Assembly (NCBI GenBank): GCA_965220505.1
Contig: CBDCQE010000001.1
Coordinates: 1,519,144 to 1,583,143, forward strand
Source of the DNA: Dehalococcoidia bacterium
GTDB taxonomy: Bacteria > Chloroflexota > Dehalococcoidia > Lucifugimonadales > UBA3495
DNA length: 64,000 nt
Direction: 5' to 3'
Positions 27,929 to 39,013 of the stretch are shown piece after piece. The position numbers and the translations under genes were made by a program. The notes beneath the pieces were generated by a model, which was not told the origin of the DNA, ran no database searches, and saw only the letters and a program-made list of their open reading frames with translations. The first letter of the stretch is position 1. Every line of letters begins with the position of its first letter.

Positions 27929-29356
27929 TCAACCCAGCCATGCCACCAGCGCCCCACCCGCGGCCAGGAAAATCAGGAACCCGAACACATCGGTAAACGT
28001 GGTCACGAACACCGCCGAAGATACCGCAGGATCGATGCCCAACCGCCGGAGCAGCAGGGGCACGCCAGCGCCGGCCAGGGCCGCTACGAGCAGGTTGCCT
28101 ACCATGGCGATGCCGATGGCGATGCCAAGCCCAATGCTCCCTTTCCAGACCCAGCCCAGCAGGCCGGCCAACAGCGCCAGCGCCAGGCCGTGGAGCAAAC
28201 CGAGCAAGGCTTCCCGACCCAGCAGGTGCCAGCCCTCGTTGGGTGCTACCTCGCCCAGGGCGAGCCCACGCACCACCAGTGTAACCGTTTGCGTACCTGC
28301 AATACCTCCCTGGCCCGCCACTACCGGCAAGAACACCGCCAGCATGGCAATCGCCGCGATAGTGGACTCGAATAGATTAACCACTGCCGCCGCCGCCAGC
28401 ACAGTACCCAAGTTAACCGCCAGCCAGGGCAAGCGATGGGCCACCGAAAGACGCAACGGACCGAATACCCTCTCTCCCGGCGCCGACGCGATGCGCAGCA
28501 TATCCTCGGCGGCCTCTTCCTCGCCGACGTGCAGCGCTTCTTCGGCCCGTACCACTCCCAACACCCGTTGAGCTTCGTCCACCACCGGAACGATGCTGAA
28601 CGAGTAACGGGACATAATCCGGTGCACTTCTTCCTGGTCTGTTTCCGGCGACACCGACACCAGGCGGTAGCCGTGCTGGTCGGCAATGTCCGCCACCGAC
28701 CGGGCCGGGCTCGCCAGAGCCAGTTGGGTGATGCTCACCGCCCTGACCAGCCGCCGTTCGTCGTCCAGCACGCAGACCCAGCCGAATCCCTCAGCATCCT
28801 CCCCGAACAGCCGCAGGGTATCCAGTGCGTTGCCGGCCGTAACGTTCTGCCTGACGCGGGGGAAGTCCGTGGTCATGATGCCGCCGGCGGTGTCCGGCGG
28901 GTACTGGAGCAGCGGGACCACGTCCTGGGGACGGTCCAGCTCAGCAACGATGGACGCCGCGCGCTCGTCGGGAAGCGCCTGCAAAATATCAGCTACGGTG
29001 TGGCTGTCTACGTCGTCCAGTAGGTTGGCGGCGCGCTCCGGCGACAGTTCTTCAACGATGGTAGCCGACGACGACGTGGGCGCCTCATCCAGGATGTCGG
29101 AAATTTCGCGCCGGGGCAGCAGCGTGATGAGCAGTCGGCGCTCCGCCCGGGAGACACGCTGTAGCAAAATGCCCTGGTCCGCTGCCAGCATCCGACGCAA
29201 CAGCGCGGCCGCCGTGACAACGCGGTCGCGCCCCAGCGCTTCGCGTATGCGTTGCCCCAGGGAATGCGGGTCCGGCGGGATGGCGTCGCCGCCGGTGGAC
29301 GGCGGCCCGTAACCGGGCGTTCCGGTGGGTTGAGAGTCGGGCGGGCGATTCATCAC
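27929..29356 (-). CDS. mgtE: Magnesium transporter MgtE
   Basis: YPPDTAGGIMT, CBS pair, RLPWL, GGIAGTQ, DPAVSS..FVTTFTD. Confidence 0.92.
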   Translation of the reverse strand: MMNRPPDSQPTGTPGYGPPSTGGDAIPPDPHSLGQRIREALGRDRVVTAAALLRRMLAADQGILLQRVSRAERRLLITLLPRREISDILDEAPTSSSATIVEELSPERAANLLDDVDSHTVADILQALPDERAASIVAELDRPQDVVPLLQYPPDTAGGIMTTDFPRVRQNVTAGNALDTLRLFGEDAEGFGWVCVLDDERRLVRAVSITQLALASPARSVADIADQHGYRLVSVSPETDQEEVHRIMSRYSFSIVPVVDEAQRVLGVVRAEEALHVGEEEAAEDMLRIASAPGERVFGPLRLSVAHRLPWLAVNLGTVLAAAAVVNLFESTIAAIAMLAVFLPVVAGQGGIAGTQTVTLVVRGLALGEVAPNEGWHLLGREALLGLLHGLALALLAGLLGWVWKGSIGLGIAIGIAMVGNLLVAALAGAGVPLLLRRLGIDPAVSSAVFVTTFTDVFGFLIFLAAGGALVAWLG

Positions 29357-29393
29357 GGTTCCTCGGCGACCGACACTCGTTGCGCCGGCCGGT

Positions 29394-31250
29394 CTAAATC
29401 GTTTGCTTTAATCTCACCGCCAGCGATCTGGTCAGTCCGGGAACGGCGGCGATCTCCTCGACGCTGGCGTCCTTGATGCCCTGGAGGGAGCCGAACCGGC
29501 GGAGCAACATGCGCTTCCGCTTGGGGCCAATGCCAGTGACCATGTCGATGGGCGATTTCAGGCTGCTCTTGGAGCGCAGGTTACGATGAAAGCTGATCGC
29601 GAACCGGTGAGCTTCGTCCCTGATGCGTTGCATGAGGTAGAGCGCCTGCGAATCCCGGGGCAAAACGATAGGTTCAGGAGTGTGCGGGACGAATATCTCC
29701 TCGTTCTCCTTGGCCAGGGAGCACAACGGAATCTGTTCCAGACCCAGGTGGAGCATCACCTCCTGGGCCGCCGACAGGTGACCCTTGCCGCCGTCGATAA
29801 TCACCAGGTCGGGCACCACGCCCCAGTTGTCGACCCTGCCGTCGGGATCGGGGTTGGCGATGGCCTGGCTCAGGCGTTTGAAACGCCGGGTCAGCATCTC
29901 CTTCATGCTGGCGTAGTCGTCCACCCCGTCGACGGCCTTGATCTTGAACCGCCGATAATCCCGGGTGCGGGCCTTGCCGTCATCGAATACGACCATGCTG
30001 CCCACCAGGTTGCTTCCCTGGATGTGGGAGATGTCGTAACACTCCATGCGCCGTGGAGCCGTGGGTAGGCTGAGTTCCTCCTCCAGCTCAGTCAACGCGC
30101 CCTGGATGGCGTCGGAGCGGTTCAGCCACTTGACGCGATGCTGGGCGAGGCCCTCCGAAGCGTTGGCGGCGACCACGTCCATCAGCTTCCGGTTCTCCCC
30201 GCGCTGAGGACGATAGATGCGAACCGCGCCGCCGCGGCGACTGCGCAGGAAGTCCTGCAAGAGCTGGGCGTCCTCGACAGGCGGGTCGTGCTGCACCAGG
30301 ACATTGGGGGGCACTTCAAGGGCGGTGGCGTAGAACTGCTGGACGAACTGGGCGATAATCTCGCCAGCCTCGCCATCCTGTGGACCCTCCATGAAGAAAT
30401 GATCGCGGCCGATCAGCTTGCCGTGACGGACGAAGAACACCTCTACCCAGGTTTCGTTGGCCGCAACCGACACAGCGATGGCGTCGAGGTCGGTCTGCCG
30501 GCCGGAATCCACCTTGACGGTGCGCTCCTCCTCGAATTTCTGGATGGCGGCCATCTGGTCGCGGAGGGCGGCGGCGCGCTCGAATTCCAGCTCCTCGGCC
30601 GCCGCCTCCATCTTGTCGCGAAGCTGACCCGTGACGACTTCGGTGTTCCCTTCCAGGAACAGGATCACTTGCTTGACCACCTCGGCATACTCATCCTGAC
30701 TGGCCAGGCCGGCGCAGGGGCCGACGCAGCGGTGAATGTAGTATTCCAGGCACGGACGCGGGTCGGTTCCCGTGATCCTCTTGGTGCAGGAACGGTAGGG
30801 GAACAGCTTCTTGACCAGGTCCATGGACTGGCGGACGCTGCCCGCGCTGGCAAAGGGCCCGAAATACCGCGCGCCATCTTTGTGCACGCCCCGCGTGATG
30901 TAAACGCGGGGAAAGTCCTCGGACAGGTCTACTTTGAGGTAGGGGTAGGTTTTGTCGTCCTTGAGGCGAACGTTGAAATAGGGCCGGTGGCGCTTGATGA
31001 GGGTGTTCTCAAGGATGAGCGCCTCGGCCTCGGTGTCGGTGACGATGTATTCGAAGTCGGCCAGTTCGCTGACCATGCGCCGGGTCTTGCGATCCAGGCC
31101 CGCCGGCGACCCGAAATAGGAACGAAGCCGGTTACGCAGTACGGCGGCCTTCCCGACGTAGATGACCGCTCCAGCGGCGTTCTTCATCAGGTAAACGCCG
31201 GGGCGTTCCGGCGTCACCAACAGGCGGTGGTCGAATTCCTGCCGAACCAC
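29394..31250 (-). CDS. uvrC: Excinuclease ABC subunit C
   Basis: PGVYLMK...IYVGKA, DDKTYPY, ECYDISHIQG, IDGGKG, RDEAHRFA, HhH. Confidence 0.97.
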   Translation of the reverse strand: MVRQEFDHRLLVTPERPGVYLMKNAAGAVIYVGKAAVLRNRLRSYFGSPAGLDRKTRRMVSELADFEYIVTDTEAEALILENTLIKRHRPYFNVRLKDDKTYPYLKVDLSEDFPRVYITRGVHKDGARYFGPFASAGSVRQSMDLVKKLFPYRSCTKRITGTDPRPCLEYYIHRCVGPCAGLASQDEYAEVVKQVILFLEGNTEVVTGQLRDKMEAAAEELEFERAAALRDQMAAIQKFEEERTVKVDSGRQTDLDAIAVSVAANETWVEVFFVRHGKLIGRDHFFMEGPQDGEAGEIIAQFVQQFYATALEVPPNVLVQHDPPVEDAQLLQDFLRSRRGGAVRIYRPQRGENRKLMDVVAANASEGLAQHRVKWLNRSDAIQGALTELEEELSLPTAPRRMECYDISHIQGSNLVGSMVVFDDGKARTRDYRRFKIKAVDGVDDYASMKEMLTRRFKRLSQAIANPDPDGRVDNWGVVPDLVIIDGGKGHLSAAQEVMLHLGLEQIPLCSLAKENEEIFVPHTPEPIVLPRDSQALYLMQRIRDEAHRFAISFHRNLRSKSSLKSPIDMVTGIGPKRKRMLLRRFGSLQGIKDASVEEIAAVPGLTRSLAVRLKQTI

Positions 31251-31277
31251 GATCCGGTCCCCGCCTCATGCGCGGGC

Positions 31278-31622
31278 CTACAGCACGAAGGAAACGGCGA
31301 CGAGCACAACCACCAGCACGCCGGAGAAGATGCCGATGCGCCGCAGTTCCGAACCAACGTGGTTGTATGCGGCCGGGCGGTCGAACCGTCGGCCCCGGGG
31401 CACGGAAGCCGGCCGGCCAACGGCAGTTGTGGCCCGAGATTGGGCCGGGGCCGTCGCGGTAGCAGCAGAAACCCGACGTTCCGGTTCGGCTTCAGCCACA
31501 GCGGACGTTGCCGGGGAGGCGGCAGCAGGATTTCGCACCGGAGCCGCGCGGTTCGCGCCGCCACGACGGCGACGCAGGTTGTTCTGTCGGGCCGCCACCC
31601 GTTTGCCTTTGCTCGGCATCAC
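31278..31622 (-). CDS. Hypothetical protein with basic N-terminus and C-terminal TM helix
   Basis: GGAGG RBS; ends ELRRIGIFSGVLVVVLVAVSFVL. Confidence 0.6.
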   Translation of the reverse strand: MMPSKGKRVAARQNNLRRRRGGANRAAPVRNPAAASPATSAVAEAEPERRVSAATATAPAQSRATTAVGRPASVPRGRRFDRPAAYNHVGSELRRIGIFSGVLVVVLVAVSFVL

Positions 31623-31812
31623 CCACCTCCTGGCGCCACGACCCGGCTATTGGCGTCGTCGGCGCAGCATTTATCTTGATGTTATACGACCCAACCGTCG
31701 CGGATCGGATCGCGCTTGAATCCATAATACCAGCATGGACTCGGTGCGCGATCCGTCACCGACCGCGACTTATGTCAATTAACCGTCGGTCGCCAGCGCT
31801 CCGCAGAATACG

Positions 31813-32412
31813 TCACCCCACCGAGATACCCAGCTCAGCCTGCATGTCGGCGACGGCCTGGTTGCGGGTCTTTCGCTGCCACTGGGGACGGGCGTTGATG
31901 GGCTCGTTGATGATTTCGGGGTCGATTTTCAGGGCGACGAACACCGGGCCCGGCCGGCTCAGAATCTCTTCGATCTGGCTGGCGAAGTCCTCCAGGTTGT
32001 CAATAGCATAGGTGGACGGATAGCCACATCCCTGGGCGACCACGTCATATTCCATCTGCTCGGCGTTGGGAACGGGCTGGCCGCCGGTGGTGGCGTATAC
32101 GCCGTTGTCCAGCATGAAATGGTAGAGGTTGGACGGCGCTTTCTCCGCAATGGTGGGCAGGGCGCCCATTCCCATCAGCACGTCCCCTTCGGAATCGAAC
32201 AGCACCACGCGCTGGTCCGGAATGGCCAGGGCCAAGCCGAGGGCAAAAGAGGCGTGGCCGCCCATGGCGGGGTCGCCCAGGGGAAGGTCCCGATCGGGCT
32301 GATCGCTCAACTCGACCCAGAACCGCCCGCCACGCCCGGGTATTACCACCGCGTCGCCGCGATGCTTGTTGAAGATTTCCAGCATTTCCGCCGTTTTCAT
32401 CATGGTGGTCAC
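31813..32412 (-). CDS. TPP-binding subunit, sulfopyruvate/phosphonopyruvate decarboxylase beta-like (ComE-like)
   Basis: AMGGHASFALGLAL, SEGDVLM, DNGVYATTGGQP. Confidence 0.8.
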   Translation of the reverse strand: MTTMMKTAEMLEIFNKHRGDAVVIPGRGGRFWVELSDQPDRDLPLGDPAMGGHASFALGLALAIPDQRVVLFDSEGDVLMGMGALPTIAEKAPSNLYHFMLDNGVYATTGGQPVPNAEQMEYDVVAQGCGYPSTYAIDNLEDFASQIEEILSRPGPVFVALKIDPEIINEPINARPQWQRKTRNQAVADMQAELGISVG

Positions 32413-32430
32413 TTCCGTTATCTGCGTTGA

Positions 32431-32940
32431 TCAGCGGCTGACGTTGAAGCCGTGGTACTCGTCGCCGACGAGAACGGCCACGGGACGCTTCTCCCGTTGT
32501 GCCTCGGCAAAGGCGATGGAGATGCGGTCGGCGTCCTCATCAGACTCCACGAGGTAGTAGTTGATGTTGAACGCATGAAGGAAGCGTTCGGTGTAGAAAG
32601 CGGCGGTGTCATTGATGACCCCGTGGCGCGTCCAGCCACGATACCCGACCATCATCACCACGGGGACGTTCATGCCCAATCCCCATCCTCGCAGGGAGTC
32701 GCCGGACTCCATCATTCCGGTGTTCTGAATCAGGATCACCGGCTTCTTGCCGCCGGCAGCGAGGCCTGCCGCCGTTGAAAAGGCGTGTCCCTCACGGCTC
32801 ACGGGCACCAGGTCCAGGCTGGGTTCCTCGCTCATCAACACGTAGAGGAAGTTGGTCTCGCTGTCAGGGAGCCATACCACGTGAGTGGCTCCGTTCTTCT
32901 TCAACTCCGCCAGGATGCGGGCTGGACTCAATTCGGCCAT
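32431..32940 (-). CDS. TPP-enzyme N-terminal subunit, sulfopyruvate decarboxylase alpha-like (ComD-like)
   Basis: HVVWLPDS, VPVSREG, ILIQNTG, MMVGYRG. Confidence 0.8.
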   Translation of the reverse strand: MAELSPARILAELKKNGATHVVWLPDSETNFLYVLMSEEPSLDLVPVSREGHAFSTAAGLAAGGKKPVILIQNTGMMESGDSLRGWGLGMNVPVVMMVGYRGWTRHGVINDTAAFYTERFLHAFNINYYLVESDEDADRISIAFAEAQREKRPVAVLVGDEYHGFNVSR

Positions 32941-33104
32941 AGGTGGTACCTGCCTGGAAATGTTTGGGGCAAACGGGAGCGCCGGGTTGCCGCAGTCAGG
33001 TATACCCGGCGCGTGATTATGCGTCAACCGGGCGCGCCGGCAACGCCTGATATTGAAATGTTCGGCGTTGGGAAACGACCTGCAGGGTCGGCGCAGCCAC
33101 CCGG

Positions 33105-34028
33105 CTAATCGTCGGCTGCGACCGCCGGCTCGGCCAGGCGGTTGTCCACAAGATCCGCGCTGCAAGCAGCGCCGTCCAGCAGACCCCAGCGTACCATCCA
33201 GTGGTAGGTGTCCTCCACAATCTCGTCGGTGTAAGGCGTGTTGTAGGAGTAACGCAAACGGGGAAGATGGAAGTCCTCTGGCGTGATGCCGCCGAAGCGG
33301 CCGGCCACCGCAGCGAACCGCGGCTCGTCAATGAGATACCGGAGGTACCTGCGCTTGTCGGCGTTGATCCGGTCCACCGCTTTCGCAACAGCCCGGTTGA
33401 TGGCCGCGAAAGTTGCCTCGTCCATGTTGTCGCTGGCGTTTTCGGCGCCCAGATAATGGCCCTCGCAGACCGGCCGGCAACCCAGCTTTTCGGCGAGGGT
33501 GATCCAGGGTTCCATGAGGGCGGCGGCCGCGACTTCGCCGTTCATCAGGGCCTCAAACCGGAACTGCGGAGACCCATAATGAACCAGCTTGATCTTCTCC
33601 TCGGGCAGATAACCCGACAGGAGCCGAAGCGCCACGTAGTGGGATCCGGCGTGGAACTGAACCGCCACCGGTTGGTTGCCCAACGTCCCGGGGTAGTAAT
33701 GGGGCGAATCAGGGTGCACCAGGATGGCCTGGGTGGCGACTGCCGAACGGAGGGCGATGATGCGGGCGCCCTGTTTGCTTTCATAGGCCCGACGGACCTG
33801 ACCTTCCTCTCAAGCGCGGTAGATCGATACCTGGGCATCCTCAAACGCCACGTGGCCAAGGATCGGGTTCACTTCTTCCGGATTCTCGGTGGGGGTAACT
33901 CTGCCGCTGTTCAGCGCGGTGACGAATTCCATGTCGATGCCTTCGGCTTCGAACAGTCCCTCGTCACGGGCGACCAGCCAGGGCAGGCTGAATACCACGC
34001 CACTGATTTCGCTGACGACTTTCTTCAT
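33105..34028 (-). CDS. NitT/TauT/NMT1-like PBP2-fold protein read through an in-frame TGA (putative selenoprotein, 307 aa)
   Basis: MKKVVSE...LPWLVARDEGLFEAEGI...IYRA-TGA(33810-33812)-EEGQVRRA continues in frame into VHPDSP...AAALMEPWI; no signal peptide; hairpin after the TGA. Confidence 0.8.
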
Positions 34029-34294
34029 TGCTGACGCTCCTGAGCGTGAAACGGGAAGTGCGCGGAAGTTTAGCAAAGTCGCCCCCCTGCGTCCATTTGA
34101 GACGCCTTCTACGCCGGTACCGCCCACTAACCAAACCAGTCTGAGACTGGAGTGCGGGAGAGAGGCCCCGGGCCCGCGCACAGGTCCCACACGCGGAGCC
34201 GGCCAGCGTCCCGGCGTGCGCCCTATGCTATACTCGCGCCAAACGAGACAGCCTGCAAATTGGGGCTGAAATTAGCCCTGTAGAGGTGTTTACT

Positions 34295-35485
34295 ATGCAG
34301 TGGGCTTCTGCGCTATCTCAACAGAACAGCCTGCGCGCCGCCCTTTCCGAATGCGCGGCTTCCATCCGCACGAACATGGGCGACACGGCGGCAGACCTGG
34401 CAGTGGTCTTCGCGTCTTCGGAGTATTCCTCGGACTACGCCAACCTTCCCGAGCTGGTTGCCGAACTGCTGGGGCACCAGGCTCTGGTGCTGGGTTGCTC
34501 CGGCGGCGGCATCATCGGCGGCGGCAGCGAGGTCGAGCAGGAACCCGCCGTTTCCGTGACGGCCGCCAGCCTGCCCGGGGTCAACATTCACCCCATCCGG
34601 CTGGAAAGCGACAACCTCCCCAGTCTGGACGCGGCGCCGGACGATTGGCACACCGCCCTGGGGGTCGACCCGGGGGACCAGCCACAGTTCGTCCTGCTGG
34701 CCGATCCGATGTCGTTCCCGGCGCAGAACCTTTTGCTGGGACTGGACTACGCCTACCCCGCCGCCGCCAAGATTGGCGGGTTGGCCAGCGCTGCCCAGGG
34801 GGCTCGCCAAAACGGCCTGTTCCTGGGGCGCGATTACCACGATTCCGGAGCCGTCGGCGTCGCGCTAACGGGCAACATCGTTGTTGAAACCGTGGTAGCC
34901 CAGGGATGCCGGCCCATTGGGTCGCCGATGCACATCACCCGCAGCGACCGCAATTTCCTCGTCGAGCTCGACGGCCAGCCGCCGCTGAACGTGCTCCGAT
35001 CCTTGTTCCAGGGAGCCGAGCAACGCGACCGCGACCTGATGCAGCACTCCCTGTTCCTGGGCGTGGTCATGGATGCGCTGATCGACGAGCCCCAGCAAGG
35101 CGATTTCCTGATCCGCAACGTGATGGGCATGGACCAGCGGAGCGGGGTCCTCGCCATCGGCGAAATGCTGAAGGAAGGTCAACTGGTCCAGTTTCACCTG
35201 CGGGACGCGGAAACCTCCGCGGATGATCTGTCGGCGGTGTTGGAACGCTACGCGGTGGACAACCGGGAGAACCCGGCCCACGGTGCGTTGCTATTTTCGT
35301 GCCTGGGGAGGGGCAAATACCTCTATGGCCGATCCAATCATGACACCGAGGTGTTCCACGAAAAGGTTGGCGCCGCAGTGCCGTTGGGCGGTTTCTTCTG
35401 CAACGGAGAAATCGGGCCGGTGAGCGGGACCACGTTCCTCCACGGATACACCAGCAGTTTCGGCATTTTCCGTCCACGCGCGTAG
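34295..35485 (+). CDS. FIST N/C domain protein
   Basis: GCSGGGIIG, IGGLAS, VAQGCRPIG, FLIRNV.G, QFHLRD, FSCLGRG, GFFCNGEIGP. Confidence 0.92.
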   Translation: MQWASALSQQNSLRAALSECAASIRTNMGDTAADLAVVFASSEYSSDYANLPELVAELLGHQALVLGCSGGGIIGGGSEVEQEPAVSVTAASLPGVNIHPIRLESDNLPSLDAAPDDWHTALGVDPGDQPQFVLLADPMSFPAQNLLLGLDYAYPAAAKIGGLASAAQGARQNGLFLGRDYHDSGAVGVALTGNIVVETVVAQGCRPIGSPMHITRSDRNFLVELDGQPPLNVLRSLFQGAEQRDRDLMQHSLFLGVVMDALIDEPQQGDFLIRNVMGMDQRSGVLAIGEMLKEGQLVQFHLRDAETSADDLSAVLERYAVDNRENPAHGALLFSCLGRGKYLYGRSNHDTEVFHEKVGAAVPLGGFFCNGEIGPVSGTTFLHGYTSSFGIFRPRA

Positions 35486-35497
35486 GAGATCAGGGCG

Positions 35498-36637
35498 ATG
35501 GCGGCAACCATCAAGGCCGGGATATCAGCGTCGCTGACCGGCCAGTTTGCTACGCAAGGCCAGCAGGCGCTGGTCGGCCTCTCTGCGTGGGTTGATCATG
35601 TCAACCAGCAGGGCGGCCTCACCGTGGGAGGAGAAAAACGTCCGGTTACGCTGGTTAGATACGACGACGGCAGTACGGCGGAAGCGACACGCCGGGCCAC
35701 GGAACAACTGATCACGGGCGACCAGGTTGACCTGCTGTTCGGGCCGTACTCTGCGGGTCTTACCACGGCGGCCGCAGAAGTCGCCGAGACCCACGGCAAG
35801 GTGGTGTGGAACCAGGGCGGAGCCGGCGACGCGCATTACGCCCGGGGGTTTCGCAAGGTGATCAGCGTGCTGACTCCGGCCGACCAGTACCTGGTCGGAG
35901 CGCCGGCGTTGGTCCGCCAGGTGAACCCCGAGGCCAACCGGCTGGTTATACTGCGGATCGACACGGGCGCTTTCGCCAGGCTCGTGGCTCGCGGTGCGGA
36001 ATCAGCGGCTCACGAGTTGGGGTTCACCACGGTGCTGGATCTGCGTTACCGGCCGACGCAGGTCAATTTCACCGAGATCGCCCGCCACGTGGCCGAACAG
36101 GAACCGGACCTCGTGGTTACCGTGGGGCGCATCCGTCACGACATTGGGACGGCCCGGGCGCTGGCCCGGCTCCCGAACCGCAACAACATCGGTTTGGCCG
36201 CCGTTATCGCGACCCCCATCGCCGGATTTGAAGAACTGCTGGGCGAAGCGGCCGACGGGTTCGTGGGTCCGAGCCAATGGGAACCGGCATTCAGCATACC
36301 AACGCCCGACGTGGGGCCCGGCGCTGCCGAAGCGCTGCGGATACTGAACGACGCGGCCGAGGCAGCAGACGTAGCAATCGACTACCCGATGGCGCAAGCC
36401 ATGGCGGCCGGCCTGGTCGCCGAGCGCTGCGTCGCGCTGGCGGGCGACCTGGACGACGATGCGGTCCTGGACGCGGCGGTGAACGCGGACTTCACGACGT
36501 TCTACGGGCGCTTCAAGATTGACGAGTCGGGCCGCCAGATCGGCAGGTCGGTTGCGCTCATCCAACGCCAGAACGGCCGCAAAGTGGTGGTATGGCCGCA
36601 GGAGTTAGCCGAAGGGGAACTGCAGTACCCGTTCTGA
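35498..36637 (+). CDS. Branched-chain amino acid ABC substrate-binding-like (PBP1) protein
   Basis: IKAGISASLTG, RYDDGS, LLFGPYSAG, TFYGRFKID, VVVWP; no signal peptide visible. Confidence 0.85.
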   Translation: MAATIKAGISASLTGQFATQGQQALVGLSAWVDHVNQQGGLTVGGEKRPVTLVRYDDGSTAEATRRATEQLITGDQVDLLFGPYSAGLTTAAAEVAETHGKVVWNQGGAGDAHYARGFRKVISVLTPADQYLVGAPALVRQVNPEANRLVILRIDTGAFARLVARGAESAAHELGFTTVLDLRYRPTQVNFTEIARHVAEQEPDLVVTVGRIRHDIGTARALARLPNRNNIGLAAVIATPIAGFEELLGEAADGFVGPSQWEPAFSIPTPDVGPGAAEALRILNDAAEAADVAIDYPMAQAMAAGLVAERCVALAGDLDDDAVLDAAVNADFTTFYGRFKIDESGRQIGRSVALIQRQNGRKVVVWPQELAEGELQYPF

Positions 36638-36646
36638 ACTGACGAA

Positions 36647-36674
36647 GCCGCCGGGACGAGTGTATCCCGGCGGC
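36647..36674. terminator. Hairpin between convergent genes
   Basis: GCCGCCGGGA-N8-TCCCGGCGGC. Confidence 0.55.
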
Positions 36675-36700
36675 CATTTGCTGCAGAGGGATTGCGTCGG

Positions 36701-37090
36701 CTAGTCAGGGCGCTGGATGATCTCCAGGCTGACCTTGTCGGGCGCCTCCACGAACATCACCTGGGAGCCGGACGGCATGGTCCACGGCTCGCAAATGATA
36801 TTGGCGCCGGTGGACTTGAACCGTTCGAAGGCCTCCTGAATATTGTCGGTCTGGAAGCCGAAATGGTCCAGGCCAAAGCGCGGGTGGGTGGACCCGGGCA
36901 CGGCGTTCTCGCCCTCGGCTTCTCCGGATACGGTGAGCAGAGGCTGACCGTTCAGCTCCAGGGTGTGGGAGATCGTGTTGGACAGCGGACGCGTGGAAAC
37001 GATCTCCGCGCCGAAGTTGTCAACGTAGAACTTGGCTGCGTTGTCGGGGTCTTCGCTCCGCAGGTGCAGGTGGTTACAAACAAAAGCCAT
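36701..37090 (-). CDS. VOC/glyoxalase family protein
   Basis: NHLHLRS.DP..AAKFY, GLDHFGF, APDKVSLEI. Confidence 0.88.
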   Translation of the reverse strand: MAFVCNHLHLRSEDPDNAAKFYVDNFGAEIVSTRPLSNTISHTLELNGQPLLTVSGEAEGENAVPGSTHPRFGLDHFGFQTDNIQEAFERFKSTGANIICEPWTMPSGSQVMFVEAPDKVSLEIIQRPD

Positions 37091-37139
37091 GATCGCTTTC
37101 CTCCTTGATTAGTGGTAACCGAAAATCCCAGCGGGCCGA

Positions 37140-37994
37140 CTACTTCAAGTAATCAGCGATCTGCTGGTCGTAATCGTCCTTTCGCGTGACTTGGGCGATC
37201 AGTTCCGGCGAGGCGCACTGGTCGCGCAGATCGCCAGGTGCGACGCCGTCACGCAAAGCCTTCAGCGTGTCGTACACCGCCTTGATCGAAGCCTGGAAGG
37301 ACAGGTGCCCCTGCAGGGCCACGCGCACACCGTTCTCGCCGAGCCATGCCTTGTCGGAGAGCTCGCCACCGGCTCCGCCCAGAAGCAGTGGTATGTTCAA
37401 CTCAGCGTTGACGGCCTCGACCTGGGCCTTGGTGCTCGCGCCGGCCAGGAAGATGGCATCAACGCCGGCGGCTTCGTAGGCCTTCACGCGACGGATGCAC
37501 TCGTCGAGTCCTTCACTCAGGCTGCTGGTGCGACCGGCAACCACCAGGTTGGGGTCGGTGCGCCCGGACAGGCCGGCCTTCATCTTGCCCACGCCCTCTT
37601 CGAGGGAAATGTACCGTGGACCATCGCCAAACTGCATGGGCAGCACGGTGTCCTCGATGGTCAATGCCGCGACACCGGAAGCTTCCAACTCTTCGACGGT
37701 ACGTTTCACGCTGAGGGCGTTGCCATAGCCATGGTCGGCGTCCACCATCAAGGGCAGTTGGCCGGCGCGACAGATGCGGTAGATCTGCTGGGCGAATTCG
37801 CTGAGGGTAAGCACGACGTAGTCGGGGGCGCCCAGCACCGTCCCGCTGGCAATGGAGCCGGCAAACATACCGACTTCGAAGCCCAAGTCCTCCGCGATAC
37901 GGGCGGAAATCGGGTCAAACACGGAGCCGGGATGTACGCAAACATCGCCGGCCAGAACGGCTCGATACCGCTCCCGTCGCTTGGTGTAGTCCAT
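37140..37994 (-). CDS. Isocitrate lyase/PEP mutase family, oxaloacetate decarboxylase-like
   Basis: SVFDPISARIAEDLGFE, DADHGYGNAL, TIEDTVLP..FG, GRT. Confidence 0.88.
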   Translation of the reverse strand: MDYTKRRERYRAVLAGDVCVHPGSVFDPISARIAEDLGFEVGMFAGSIASGTVLGAPDYVVLTLSEFAQQIYRICRAGQLPLMVDADHGYGNALSVKRTVEELEASGVAALTIEDTVLPMQFGDGPRYISLEEGVGKMKAGLSGRTDPNLVVAGRTSSLSEGLDECIRRVKAYEAAGVDAIFLAGASTKAQVEAVNAELNIPLLLGGAGGELSDKAWLGENGVRVALQGHLSFQASIKAVYDTLKALRDGVAPGDLRDQCASPELIAQVTRKDDYDQQIADYLK

Positions 37995-38143
37995 ACGCTT
38001 TTGGCTCCTTTGGTTGCGTCGTTCGGCGGTATGCTACCATCCGTCCCGTGTATTCTAACCAATTCGTGCGGGGGCGCAACCTGCGGGCTGTGCTGCACCG
38101 AGCCGGCAGCATCGGCCGGCGATAGCACGGCGCCAGCGATACT

Positions 38144-39013
38144 ATGACCACGATAATCGGCGTCGACTTCAGCGGCCATCGGGAAGACCGCAATACATGG
38201 ATGGCGTCGGGGAAACTCACCGGCGACGGTGCGCTGGAGCTGGACAGCGTGCAACCGGTGCGGCGCGACGACCTTTACGTCGCGCTGTGCGATGTGCCGA
38301 CGCCGGCGGTGGCGGCATTGGACTTCCCGTTTGGCGTGCCCCGGGCGTTCGCCGATTCCCTGTGCCGGGAACGTACCTTGAAGGACATGATCGACATCTG
38401 GGGAGTCGTGTCCGCATTGACAGCGCACGAGTTCGTCAACAGGCGGGACGAATTCGTAAACCAGCGGCCCGGGCTGCCACTCTCGGAGCGAGAACCCAAG
38501 CGCGCCGGCGACCTGGCCTACCACCGCGAGAGTTATTCGCCCCTGCATACCGTCAACCCGAACATGCTGCCCATGACCTATGAAGGGATACGCATGCTGC
38601 ATCGGTGGCACCACGAGCGTCCCGACCGATGGCACGTGCCGCCACTGGAGCCCACGGGGCCACCATCTCAAAGGGTCACGCTCTTGGAACTCATGCCGGG
38701 GGCGTTCCTGAAATCGGTTGGACTACCGTACAAGGGCTACAAAAAAGGACGCACCGCGTTGGAAAGGCGCGACGAAATCCTGGGCAGGCTGGCCGAGGCG
38801 TCCGGCGTTGGCTTGCCCAACTTGGACCGCGTCCGCATGGCCTGCCGCGCCAATGACGACTGCCTGGATGCGGTGGTTGCGGCGGTGGGAGCGGCGGCGT
38901 GGGCCAGGGACTCGTCCCAATTTCACCACCCCAACCTCGATGAACTCGCCGATGCTGCGTTGGAAGGTTGGATTTACGTGCCGAGACTCGACGGGCCGGA
39001 CGGCTCAGGCTGA
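38144..39013 (+). CDS. DUF429-like (RNase H-fold) protein
   Basis: IGVDFSG, ALDFPFGVP, LELMP, DDCLDAVVAA, EGWIY. Confidence 0.75.
   Translation: MTTIIGVDFSGHREDRNTWMASGKLTGDGALELDSVQPVRRDDLYVALCDVPTPAVAALDFPFGVPRAFADSLCRERTLKDMIDIWGVVSALTAHEFVNRRDEFVNQRPGLPLSEREPKRAGDLAYHRESYSPLHTVNPNMLPMTYEGIRMLHRWHHERPDRWHVPPLEPTGPPSQRVTLLELMPGAFLKSVGLPYKGYKKGRTALERRDEILGRLAEASGVGLPNLDRVRMACRANDDCLDAVVAAVGAAAWARDSSQFHHPNLDELADAALEGWIYVPRLDGPDGSG

Follow-up and report, generated by a model that had tools for sequence, protein, structure and literature searches.

A window of 64,000 nucleotides from the genome of a Dehalococcoidia bacterium (Chloroflexota; GenBank assembly GCA_965220505.1, contig CBDCQE010000001.1, positions 1,519,144 to 1,583,143 of the forward strand) carries a minus-strand gene (33105..34028) with an in-frame TGA, and its product is very probably a genuine selenoprotein. 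The frame runs from the ATG at 34028-34026 to the TAG at 33107-33105 and comprises 307 codons and the stop. The sole in-frame TGA is codon 73 (33810..33812, minus strand; context IYRA-U-EEGQVRRA, in which U is selenocysteine, Sec), and this column is conserved in related loci. The protein is predicted to be cytoplasmic and to have an SsuA/TauA/NMT1-like type II binding-protein fold, and the combination of Sec with this fold and location is held with almost the same high confidence. Here, we propose that the gene is intact, that the UGA of codon 73 is decoded as Sec by SelA, SelB, SelD, and tRNA-Sec of the organism itself, and that recoding is directed by a minimal 15-nt hairpin within the coding sequence (CDS), starting 10 nt downstream. 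Comparison among genomes establishes the predicted recoding signal and the machinery that would read it. The family is new to the selenoproteome, which it joins through an ordinary bacterial recoding mechanism.

The in-frame TGA, its Cys counterparts, and the Sec machinery

A six-frame search of 61 genomes from the same order detected the gene, interrupted by "1 TGA", in 31 of them. The window's genus contributes 28 of its 37 genomes (the window's own included), and other families contribute three (54%, 47%, and 45% identity). In another genome, a 54%-identical copy lacks the stop and has TGC at the column. The 31 loci were then fetched, and the TGA occupies the identical column in 30 of the 30 fetched Sec-type loci. 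A genome_contigs scan with one genome per species gave 330 related stretches, 80 of which were kept for counts: the TGA is present in 76 of them, and the other four have TGC or TGT. The record titles of these loci name Dehalococcoidia, SAR202, and Chloroflexota metagenome-assembled genomes. The two counts are not independent because both sets may include the same genomes. With 76 of 80 loci and the loci from other families of the order, the TGA is not specific to one strain. A single frame is kept across it in every Sec-type locus examined (45-98% identity), and a codon alignment of 77 distinct Sec-type coding sequences indicates purifying selection on both flanks. The upstream side varies synonymously, as at Phe62 (TTT in 34, TTC in 43), Val67 (four codons), and Arg71 (three codons). 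At one locus of the same genus (G027:C103:19216-20128), the gene is split into two matches that lie in different frames and share ~20 nt around codon 70; a frameshift or a misassembly next to the Sec codon may explain this.

Homologues without the TGA have Cys at this column. In an alignment of 44 full-length homologues (A2), all 44 have Cys under the TGA. A profile search of 1.84 billion cluster representatives gave 141 matches at E ≤1e-30 and 621 at E ≤1e-10, and 41 near-full-length representatives, down to 22% identity, were picked from the 150 matches listed (A3). Cys73 is found in 40 of these 41, Trp75 in 39, Gly76 in 38, and Arg80 in 37; the single exception at the Cys column is a distant row with Gly. 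Neither A2 nor A3 has Trp or Arg there, residues that would have counted against the Sec reading. Because these four residues are near-invariant in A3, C-E-W-G-x3-R can be regarded as the signature of the family. Within the Sec clade, His59, His126, His130, and Glu180 are also conserved (A2), but His59, His126, and Glu180 are not conserved across the wider family (A3), unlike Cys73, Trp75, Gly76, and Arg80.

The two open reading frame (ORF) fragments that a sequence-only reading of the window had joined (33810-34190 and 33105-33719) are confirmed in the sequence as the two sides of codon 73 in one frame. An AGGAG ribosome-binding-like motif (34037..34041, minus strand) is seen 8 nt 5' of the ATG. 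The N-termini of the orthologues all read M-K/Q/R-K-V-V-S-E. A start at the GTG at 34190, as given in the ORF list, was ruled out because the region upstream of the ATG is unconserved in the orthologues and often contains stops. In the public database, the best ~60 matches are fragments of 203-219 aa that begin after the TGA, that is, stop-truncated gene calls, which start at varied internal GTG, ATG, or TTG codons 20-30 residues past the TGA. Some of them are named "NitT/TauT family transport system substrate-binding protein". Full-length matches of ~300 residues (~50% identity) come next in the list, and the full-length Cys homologues cover 97% of the query. The sequence-only reading had described a cytoplasmic Sec protein with a binding-protein fold, liable to be cut short or labelled as a transporter in annotation, and this description is strongly supported by the Cys column, the conservation of the TGA, and the sel genes. 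Contigs from a DNA run and from RNA libraries (two studies) contain the same gene region. The RNA-library contigs (90-99% alike) extend over the gene and across the TGA, but they do not in themselves show transcription, strand, or translation, and DNA may occur in such libraries. One such contig spans both ComDE-like genes described below and the C-terminal part of the selenoprotein gene. A scan for promoters and terminators gave weak consensus matches only, one of them a promoter-like site that lies between the genes for the selenoprotein and the ComD-like protein.

The genome (3.88 Mb, 98.9% complete) contains all of selA, selB, selC, and selD, on which a Sec reading depends. SelB (356 bits), SelA (539 bits), and SelD (380 bits) all score above the curated cut-offs, and ARAGORN places tRNA-Sec with the anticodon TCA at C1:1162100-1162196. 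TGA is an ordinary stop in this genome, as it ends 745 of the 1665 ORFs of at least 400 codons and both neighboring genes; it is not reassigned. The selD gene itself (C1:2037375-2038295, outside the window) is interrupted in frame by a single TGA (SHCAG-U-AAK), with an 8-bp hairpin ~20 nt downstream, so that this organism already produces one canonical selenoprotein or more. Elsewhere on the same contig, a luciferase-like monooxygenase match (C1:1386454-1387347, outside the window, 197 bits) also has one in-frame TGA and could be a Sec candidate or a pseudogene.

A quick maximum-likelihood tree was calculated from 105 rows: 47 Sec sequences (thinned from 77 at 95% identity), 48 Cys sequences, and 10 distant representatives. 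The 47 Sec rows all group within a single clade (SH-aLRT 90), in which one Cys representative is also nested; the latter keeps the Sec-type motif C-E-E-G, which suggests one gain of Sec and one reversion. The family is widespread in SAR202-type ocean bacteria, and the comparison shows that one SAR202/Dehalococcoidia clade of it has replaced, by Sec, the near-invariant Cys of a larger family without signal peptides.

The hairpin downstream of the UGA

A putative SECIS (selenocysteine insertion sequence)-type hairpin, AGGUCC-GUC-GGGCCU, is located at 33785..33799 (minus strand) and has a 6-bp stem and a 3-nt loop starting with G-U. It is present as the sequence-only reading had described it, ~10 nt after the UGA and with a loop beginning with G. 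The 10-nt spacer between the UGA and the hairpin (GAGGAAGGUC; 33800..33809, minus strand) varies freely at synonymous sites, and its codons 74-76 each have two to four synonymous forms in the 77 distinct coding sequences. The hairpin starts 10 nt and its loop 16 nt past the UGA, and it is the minimum-free-energy structure of the local RNA (-7.6 kcal/mol).

The property of the hairpin that exceeds chance is its conservation, not its stability. In the codon alignment built from the 77 coding sequences, codons 77 (CAG), 78 (GTC), 80 (CGG), and 81 (GCC), encoding Gln, Val, Arg, and Ala, are invariant in 77 of 77, fourfold and sixfold degenerate sites included, while the other codons with a conserved amino acid have a mean synonymous entropy of 1.0 bit. 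These four are the sole degenerate codons without synonymous change among the well-populated columns. The codon in the middle of the loop (Arg79) is CGT in 74 sequences and CGG in 3, which changes the loop from GUC to GGC. The only change in the stem was found at a locus outside the 77 (L102), where codon 78 is GTT and a C-G pair becomes U.G with the stem retained. Cys-form genes encode similar residues with different codons, and the hairpin is absent from them. The TGA and the hairpin are thus conserved together in many genomes, as had been anticipated for a functional signal.

In the bacterial SECIS model of a 2026 review (PMC13188914), the element has a loop of 3-9 nt, a stem of 4-16 bp, a G in the first two loop positions, a spacing of 16-37 nt, and an energy of -7.5 kcal/mol or lower. 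The hairpin fits this model in its loop (3 nt), stem (6 bp), G-U loop start, spacing (16 nt), and energy (-7.6 kcal/mol). Against this model, it stands at the minimal end: the stem has 6 bp and the loop 3 nt, the spacing is the shortest allowed, and the energy lies just at the threshold. Such a very small and extremely conserved SECIS would offer a clean test case for the minimal signal required by the SelB of Chloroflexota.

Fold, position of residue 73, and possible function

The Pfam and NCBIfam models gave sub-threshold matches only (PF13379, 16.8 versus 24.7 bits; PF09084, 13.8 versus 20.5 bits; TIGR01728, 17.8 versus 163.5 bits). An AlphaFold2 model calculated from 45 sequences has a mean predicted local distance difference test (pLDDT) score of 91.8 and a predicted template modeling (pTM) score of 0.89. 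In a fold search, the top matches are all transport receptors: SsuA (3e4r_A; Z 24.3, rmsd 2.7 Å over 268 aligned residues), NrtA (Z 23.2), and TauA (6ssy_A; Z 21.9). Cytoplasmic enzymes follow, namely Thi5 (Z 18.5), MqnD (Z 17.5), DszB (Z 16.1), and 4,5-dihydroxyphthalate decarboxylase (Z 13.7). Strand 1 begins at residue 2, and residue 1 of the model aligns with residue 28 of SsuA and residue 22 of TauA, the mature N-termini. Because the model thus starts where mature periplasmic proteins start, no export signal (signal peptide or lipobox) is recognized by model and alignment, no dedicated signal-peptide predictor having been run; likewise, none of the 41 A3 representatives has room for an N-terminal signal peptide. 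The suggestion of a NitT/TauT/NMT1-like protein without a signal peptide and without an adjacent permease or ATPase gene is therefore borne out. A Cys homologue looked up in a protein atlas has only generic cluster names ("NMT1 / ABC substrate-binding"). Three matches among longer proteins were considered as functional clues and rejected as uninformative: one is weak, and the other two (P0124 and P0125, 694-697 aa, 44% identity) carry fusions to helix-turn-helix domains of the transposase type, probably as artefacts of insertion or gene calling.

In the AlphaFold2 model, residue 73 lies at the junction of strand 69-73 and helix 74-83 (strand 3 and helix 3). In Escherichia coli TauA, the sulfonate of taurine is bound by Gln30 and by three backbone NH groups (Gly61, Gly79, and Thr132), as described in PMC6906117. 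An hhalign comparison of the family profile with TauA (K-12 record) places Thr99 on Ser105 and Gly128-Ser129-His130-Tyr131 on Thr132-Thr-His-Tyr. An ungapped +6 register places U73 on TauA Gly79, with the shared pattern V-x-I-x-x-x-[G/U] followed by a helix and then a long crossing strand. Sec73 may thus fall on a sulfonate-coordinating position of TauA, and it would therefore stand in for one of the backbone groups that bind the oxyanion, facing the conserved G-S-H loop on the other lobe.

On this basis, the most likely model is a putative cleft enzyme for a small anionic substrate, with Sec placed where the oxyanion is bound. The substrate, a sulfonate, sulfinate, or similar oxyanion-bearing compound, would be clamped between the two lobes, and the selenolate, with Arg80 nearby, would attack the clamped anion as a nucleophile or redox center. 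The chemistry would be comparable to that of the Cys of DszB, supplied from a different loop. Sec73 probably has a catalytic rather than merely a binding role, an assignment made with moderate confidence, but an organosulfur compound specifically as the substrate is unlikely. More doubtful still is a further-reaching proposal, taken as a whole, in which the protein would be the founding selenoprotein of an unrecognized class of cytoplasmic enzymes derived from the sulfonate site of an ABC receptor turned active site. There, Sec would replace the backbone ligand and attack the oxyanion, and the activity would be desulfonating, desulfinating, or oxyanion-reducing on recalcitrant organosulfur in deep-ocean SAR202.

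A number of observations weigh against this interpretation. The insertion of selenium itself at codon 73 is a point that we infer from comparison only. The stability of the hairpin is no better than chance (z -0.29 and +0.09 versus shuffles), and thermodynamics alone proves nothing, because a 6-bp stem in G+C-rich sequence is no more stable than shuffled controls. No true compensatory covariation was found in the near-invariant stem, only the one wobble-preserving change. The support for the Sec clade in the quick tree is moderate, and several long branches are flagged unsure. The hhalign comparison with TauA covers residues 99-296 only and leaves the N-terminal lobe unaligned, the profile alignments to the Protein Data Bank (PDB) cover mainly lobe II and do not reliably include residue 73, and the cleft placement of Sec73 is alignment arithmetic. 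No second, resolving redox Cys is conserved in A2 or A3. No universal operon partner was found among at least six different conserved neighborhoods, and the neighboring families are hugely expanded, with 88 luciferase-like monooxygenase, 48 family III CoA-transferase, and 28 TPP_enzyme_C matches genome-wide, so that adjacency says little. The common fold shows no function and therefore leaves room for a ligand-binding, sensing, or carrier role.

The last point leads to the alternative that survives best, which we consider possible but rather improbable: the protein would be a genuine selenoprotein but not an enzyme, that is, a cytoplasmic binding, sensing, or carrier protein in which Sec/Cys73 serves as a ligand, for example to a metal or metalloid or to a species of selenium or sulfur. 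The binding-protein fold with its best matches among transport receptors agrees with such a role, as do the lack of a conserved second redox Cys and of a conserved enzymatic partner. His59, His126, His130, and Glu180, conserved in the Sec clade, could form a metal site, but three of them (His59, His126, and Glu180) are not family-wide, whereas Cys73, Trp75, Gly76, and Arg80 are. The protein also has no signal peptide, transporter genes were not found nearby, and cytoplasmic enzymes with this fold exist (Thi5, MqnD, DszB, and 4,5-dihydroxyphthalate decarboxylase). The selenoprotein catalogue of PMC13188914 provides a precedent for substrate-binding selenoproteins in SaoB and SaoX, but their models do not match the protein described here, and the Sec residues of catalogued selenoproteins are described there as located in active sites.

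That the TGA is a true stop, giving a split gene with two proteins (72 aa and ~204 aa), or is passed by near-cognate read-through without Sec, is very improbable. The two pieces lie in one frame in every Sec-type locus and align end to end with single-chain Cys homologues, and the break would separate strand 3 from helix 3 within a single structural lobe. Gene prediction yields just the C-terminal piece of 203-219 aa, which would fit a true stop, but the called pieces start at varied internal codons 20-30 residues past the TGA. Likewise, TGA is the commonest stop of the genome and the hairpin is thermodynamically unremarkable, but a plain stop leaves the nucleotide-level constraint on the hairpin unexplained, and the genome encodes the complete Sec machinery. 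The explanation by a pseudogene, or by an error of sequencing or assembly in this genome, is practically negligible: a lone in-frame stop in an intact gene does resemble a fresh nonsense mutation, but the same TGA recurs in many independent assemblies (76 of 80 loci and 31 of 61 genomes), both of its sides are under purifying selection, the DNA run and the RNA-library contigs show the same region, and a systematic error shared across assemblies is excluded because their sequences diverge.

If the proposed selenoprotein is genuine, public annotation systematically truncates the gene, and the fragments sit in clusters of up to 592 member sequences. It would also add to the prokaryotic selenoproteins a cytoplasmic protein with a transporter-receptor fold rather than a thioredoxin-like redox protein. 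Sec usually marks a chemically demanding active site, and residue 73 therefore points to a functional residue of a much larger, uncharacterized Cys family, for which it would be a concrete handle for biochemical work. The record titles, together with the expanded sets of oxygenases and CoA-transferases, point to the degradation of unusual organic matter by SAR202/Dehalococcoidia.

Gene neighborhood and comparison with known systems

The ORFs scanned around the selenoprotein gene (27929-39013) encode MgtE, UvrC, ComE-like, ComD-like, FIST, Peripla_BP_6, glyoxalase, PEP-mutase-family, and DUF429 proteins. Permease or ATPase genes were found neither among these ORFs nor among the 27 commonest neighbor clusters annotated from 83 loci. 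Downstream on the same strand are the two halves of a split thiamine pyrophosphate (TPP) decarboxylase: a ComD-like N-terminal half (32431..32940, minus strand; PF02776; TIGR03845, 76.9 versus a cut-off of 147.95 bits) and a ComE-like or phosphonopyruvate-decarboxylase-like C-terminal half (31813..32403, minus strand; PF02775). The latter scores 104.9 bits with TIGR03297 and 95.1 versus 221.5 bits with TIGR03846, both below the cut-offs. The co-oriented ComD/ComE-like genes had been taken as a hint of organosulfur metabolism, but this link did not prove general. The two genes adjoin in only 10 of the 80 loci, each with 93.8% identity or more to the protein of the window, and two further, distant ComE-like matches lie ~6 kb away; the scores also stay below the sulfopyruvate-decarboxylase equivalog cut-offs. 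Because of this narrow occurrence, the association is a weak one, a shallow and clade-specific feature.

In other clades, the neighbors are luciferase-like monooxygenases, a full-length TPP enzyme with a GMC oxidoreductase, family III CoA-transferases, an S49 peptidase with MazG, or a gamma-glutamyltranspeptidase with an aminotransferase. The Cys paralogues in four genomes have yet other gene contexts. A partnership with TPP enzymes was considered, as these recur in the form of the split decarboxylase, a full-length PRK08266-type enzyme, and a 2-oxoacid:ferredoxin oxidoreductase; it was rejected because the enrichment is too weak in a 3.9-Mb genome with 28 TPP-enzyme genes. In two loci from different families (L029:2091-5903 and L134:2037-6846), a Sec form and a 38%-identical Cys paralogue, respectively, are each tail to tail with a 2-oxoacid:ferredoxin oxidoreductase alpha/beta pair. 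A Cys-form paralogue from another family of the order (41% identical; L131:5980-12546) adjoins an opposite-strand cluster that resembles one for phosphonate biosynthesis: it encodes a PEP mutase (169 bits) and a split TPP decarboxylase together with a class V aminotransferase, a methyltransferase, and a phosphodiesterase.

Within the window, a FIST-domain gene (34286-35485, plus strand) is divergent from the selenoprotein gene and is directly followed by a gene for a type I binding protein (Peripla_BP_6; 35498-36637, plus strand), whose Pfam match starts at residue 4, so that it also seems to be without a signal peptide. This pair is kept in 7-8 of the 10 closest loci. A PEP-mutase/isocitrate-lyase-family protein is encoded at 37140-37994 (minus strand), with the split decarboxylase ~4 kb away. 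Among the NCBIfam models, it matches methylisocitrate lyase best (142 bits, below the cut-off), and it scores only 84 bits as PEP mutase; it is probably not a phosphonate gene.

The sequence-only reading had not recognized a characterized selenoprotein family here, and the same holds for the catalogues checked. Table 1 of PMC13188914 lists 119 prokaryotic selenoprotein families without an NMT1/SsuA-like entry, and no model of NCBIfam release 20.0 recognizes the family. It was not found in the literature on SAR202/Dehalococcoidia selenoproteins or on selenocysteine NMT1/substrate-binding proteins, nor in PMC12013277, PMC2398784, PMC9402790, or PMC13326102 with its supplement, although the supplements of other papers could list it. 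The nearest catalogued cases are SaoB and SaoX (NF040727 and NF040735), which the same table describes as ABC-transporter substrate-binding selenoproteins with the Sec motifs CUxxT and UxP. They share with the protein described here the use of Sec, in their case in substrate-binding subunits. However, no match to either model was obtained at E up to 0.1, the motif here is A-U-E-E-G, and they are transporter subunits, whereas the present protein has no transporter context.

With the bacterial genes that carry an intragenic SECIS, of which E. coli fdhF is the prototype, the gene has in common the in-frame UGA, the stem-loop within the CDS with a G-U loop start at 16 nt, the existence of Cys homologues, and the presence of selA, selB, selC, and selD. 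The SsuA, TauA, and NrtA binding proteins match the type II two-lobed fold of the protein along its entire length, but the protein here lacks a signal peptide and nearby permease/ATPase genes, and it scores far below the family cut-offs. Its G-S-H-Y loop aligns with the sulfonate-binding loop T132-T-H-Y of TauA, and its Sec/Cys would be at the position of TauA Gly79, as judged from the register. Thi5/NMT1 (PDB 4h65 and 4esw) is a cytoplasmic enzyme of the same fold with weak N-terminal profile similarity, the profile match being limited to residues 11-45. The active-site residues of Thi5 include His66, which is named in a PDB entry title, and Lys62; the C-E-W-G-x3-R motif is not known as a Thi5 feature.

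DszB, the 2'-hydroxybiphenyl-2-sulfinate desulfinase (PDB 2de2 and 2de3), is likewise a cytoplasmic enzyme with this fold. It uses a single Cys next to the bound sulfur oxyanion, and a PDB entry title names the C27S mutant. The profile similarity has an E value of 0.86, and, roughly, as judged from the alignment ranges, Cys27 of DszB would lie near residue 9 here, in the first anion-binding loop, and not at residue 73 in the third. DszB and the Sec protein would then present the nucleophile to the same site from different loops.

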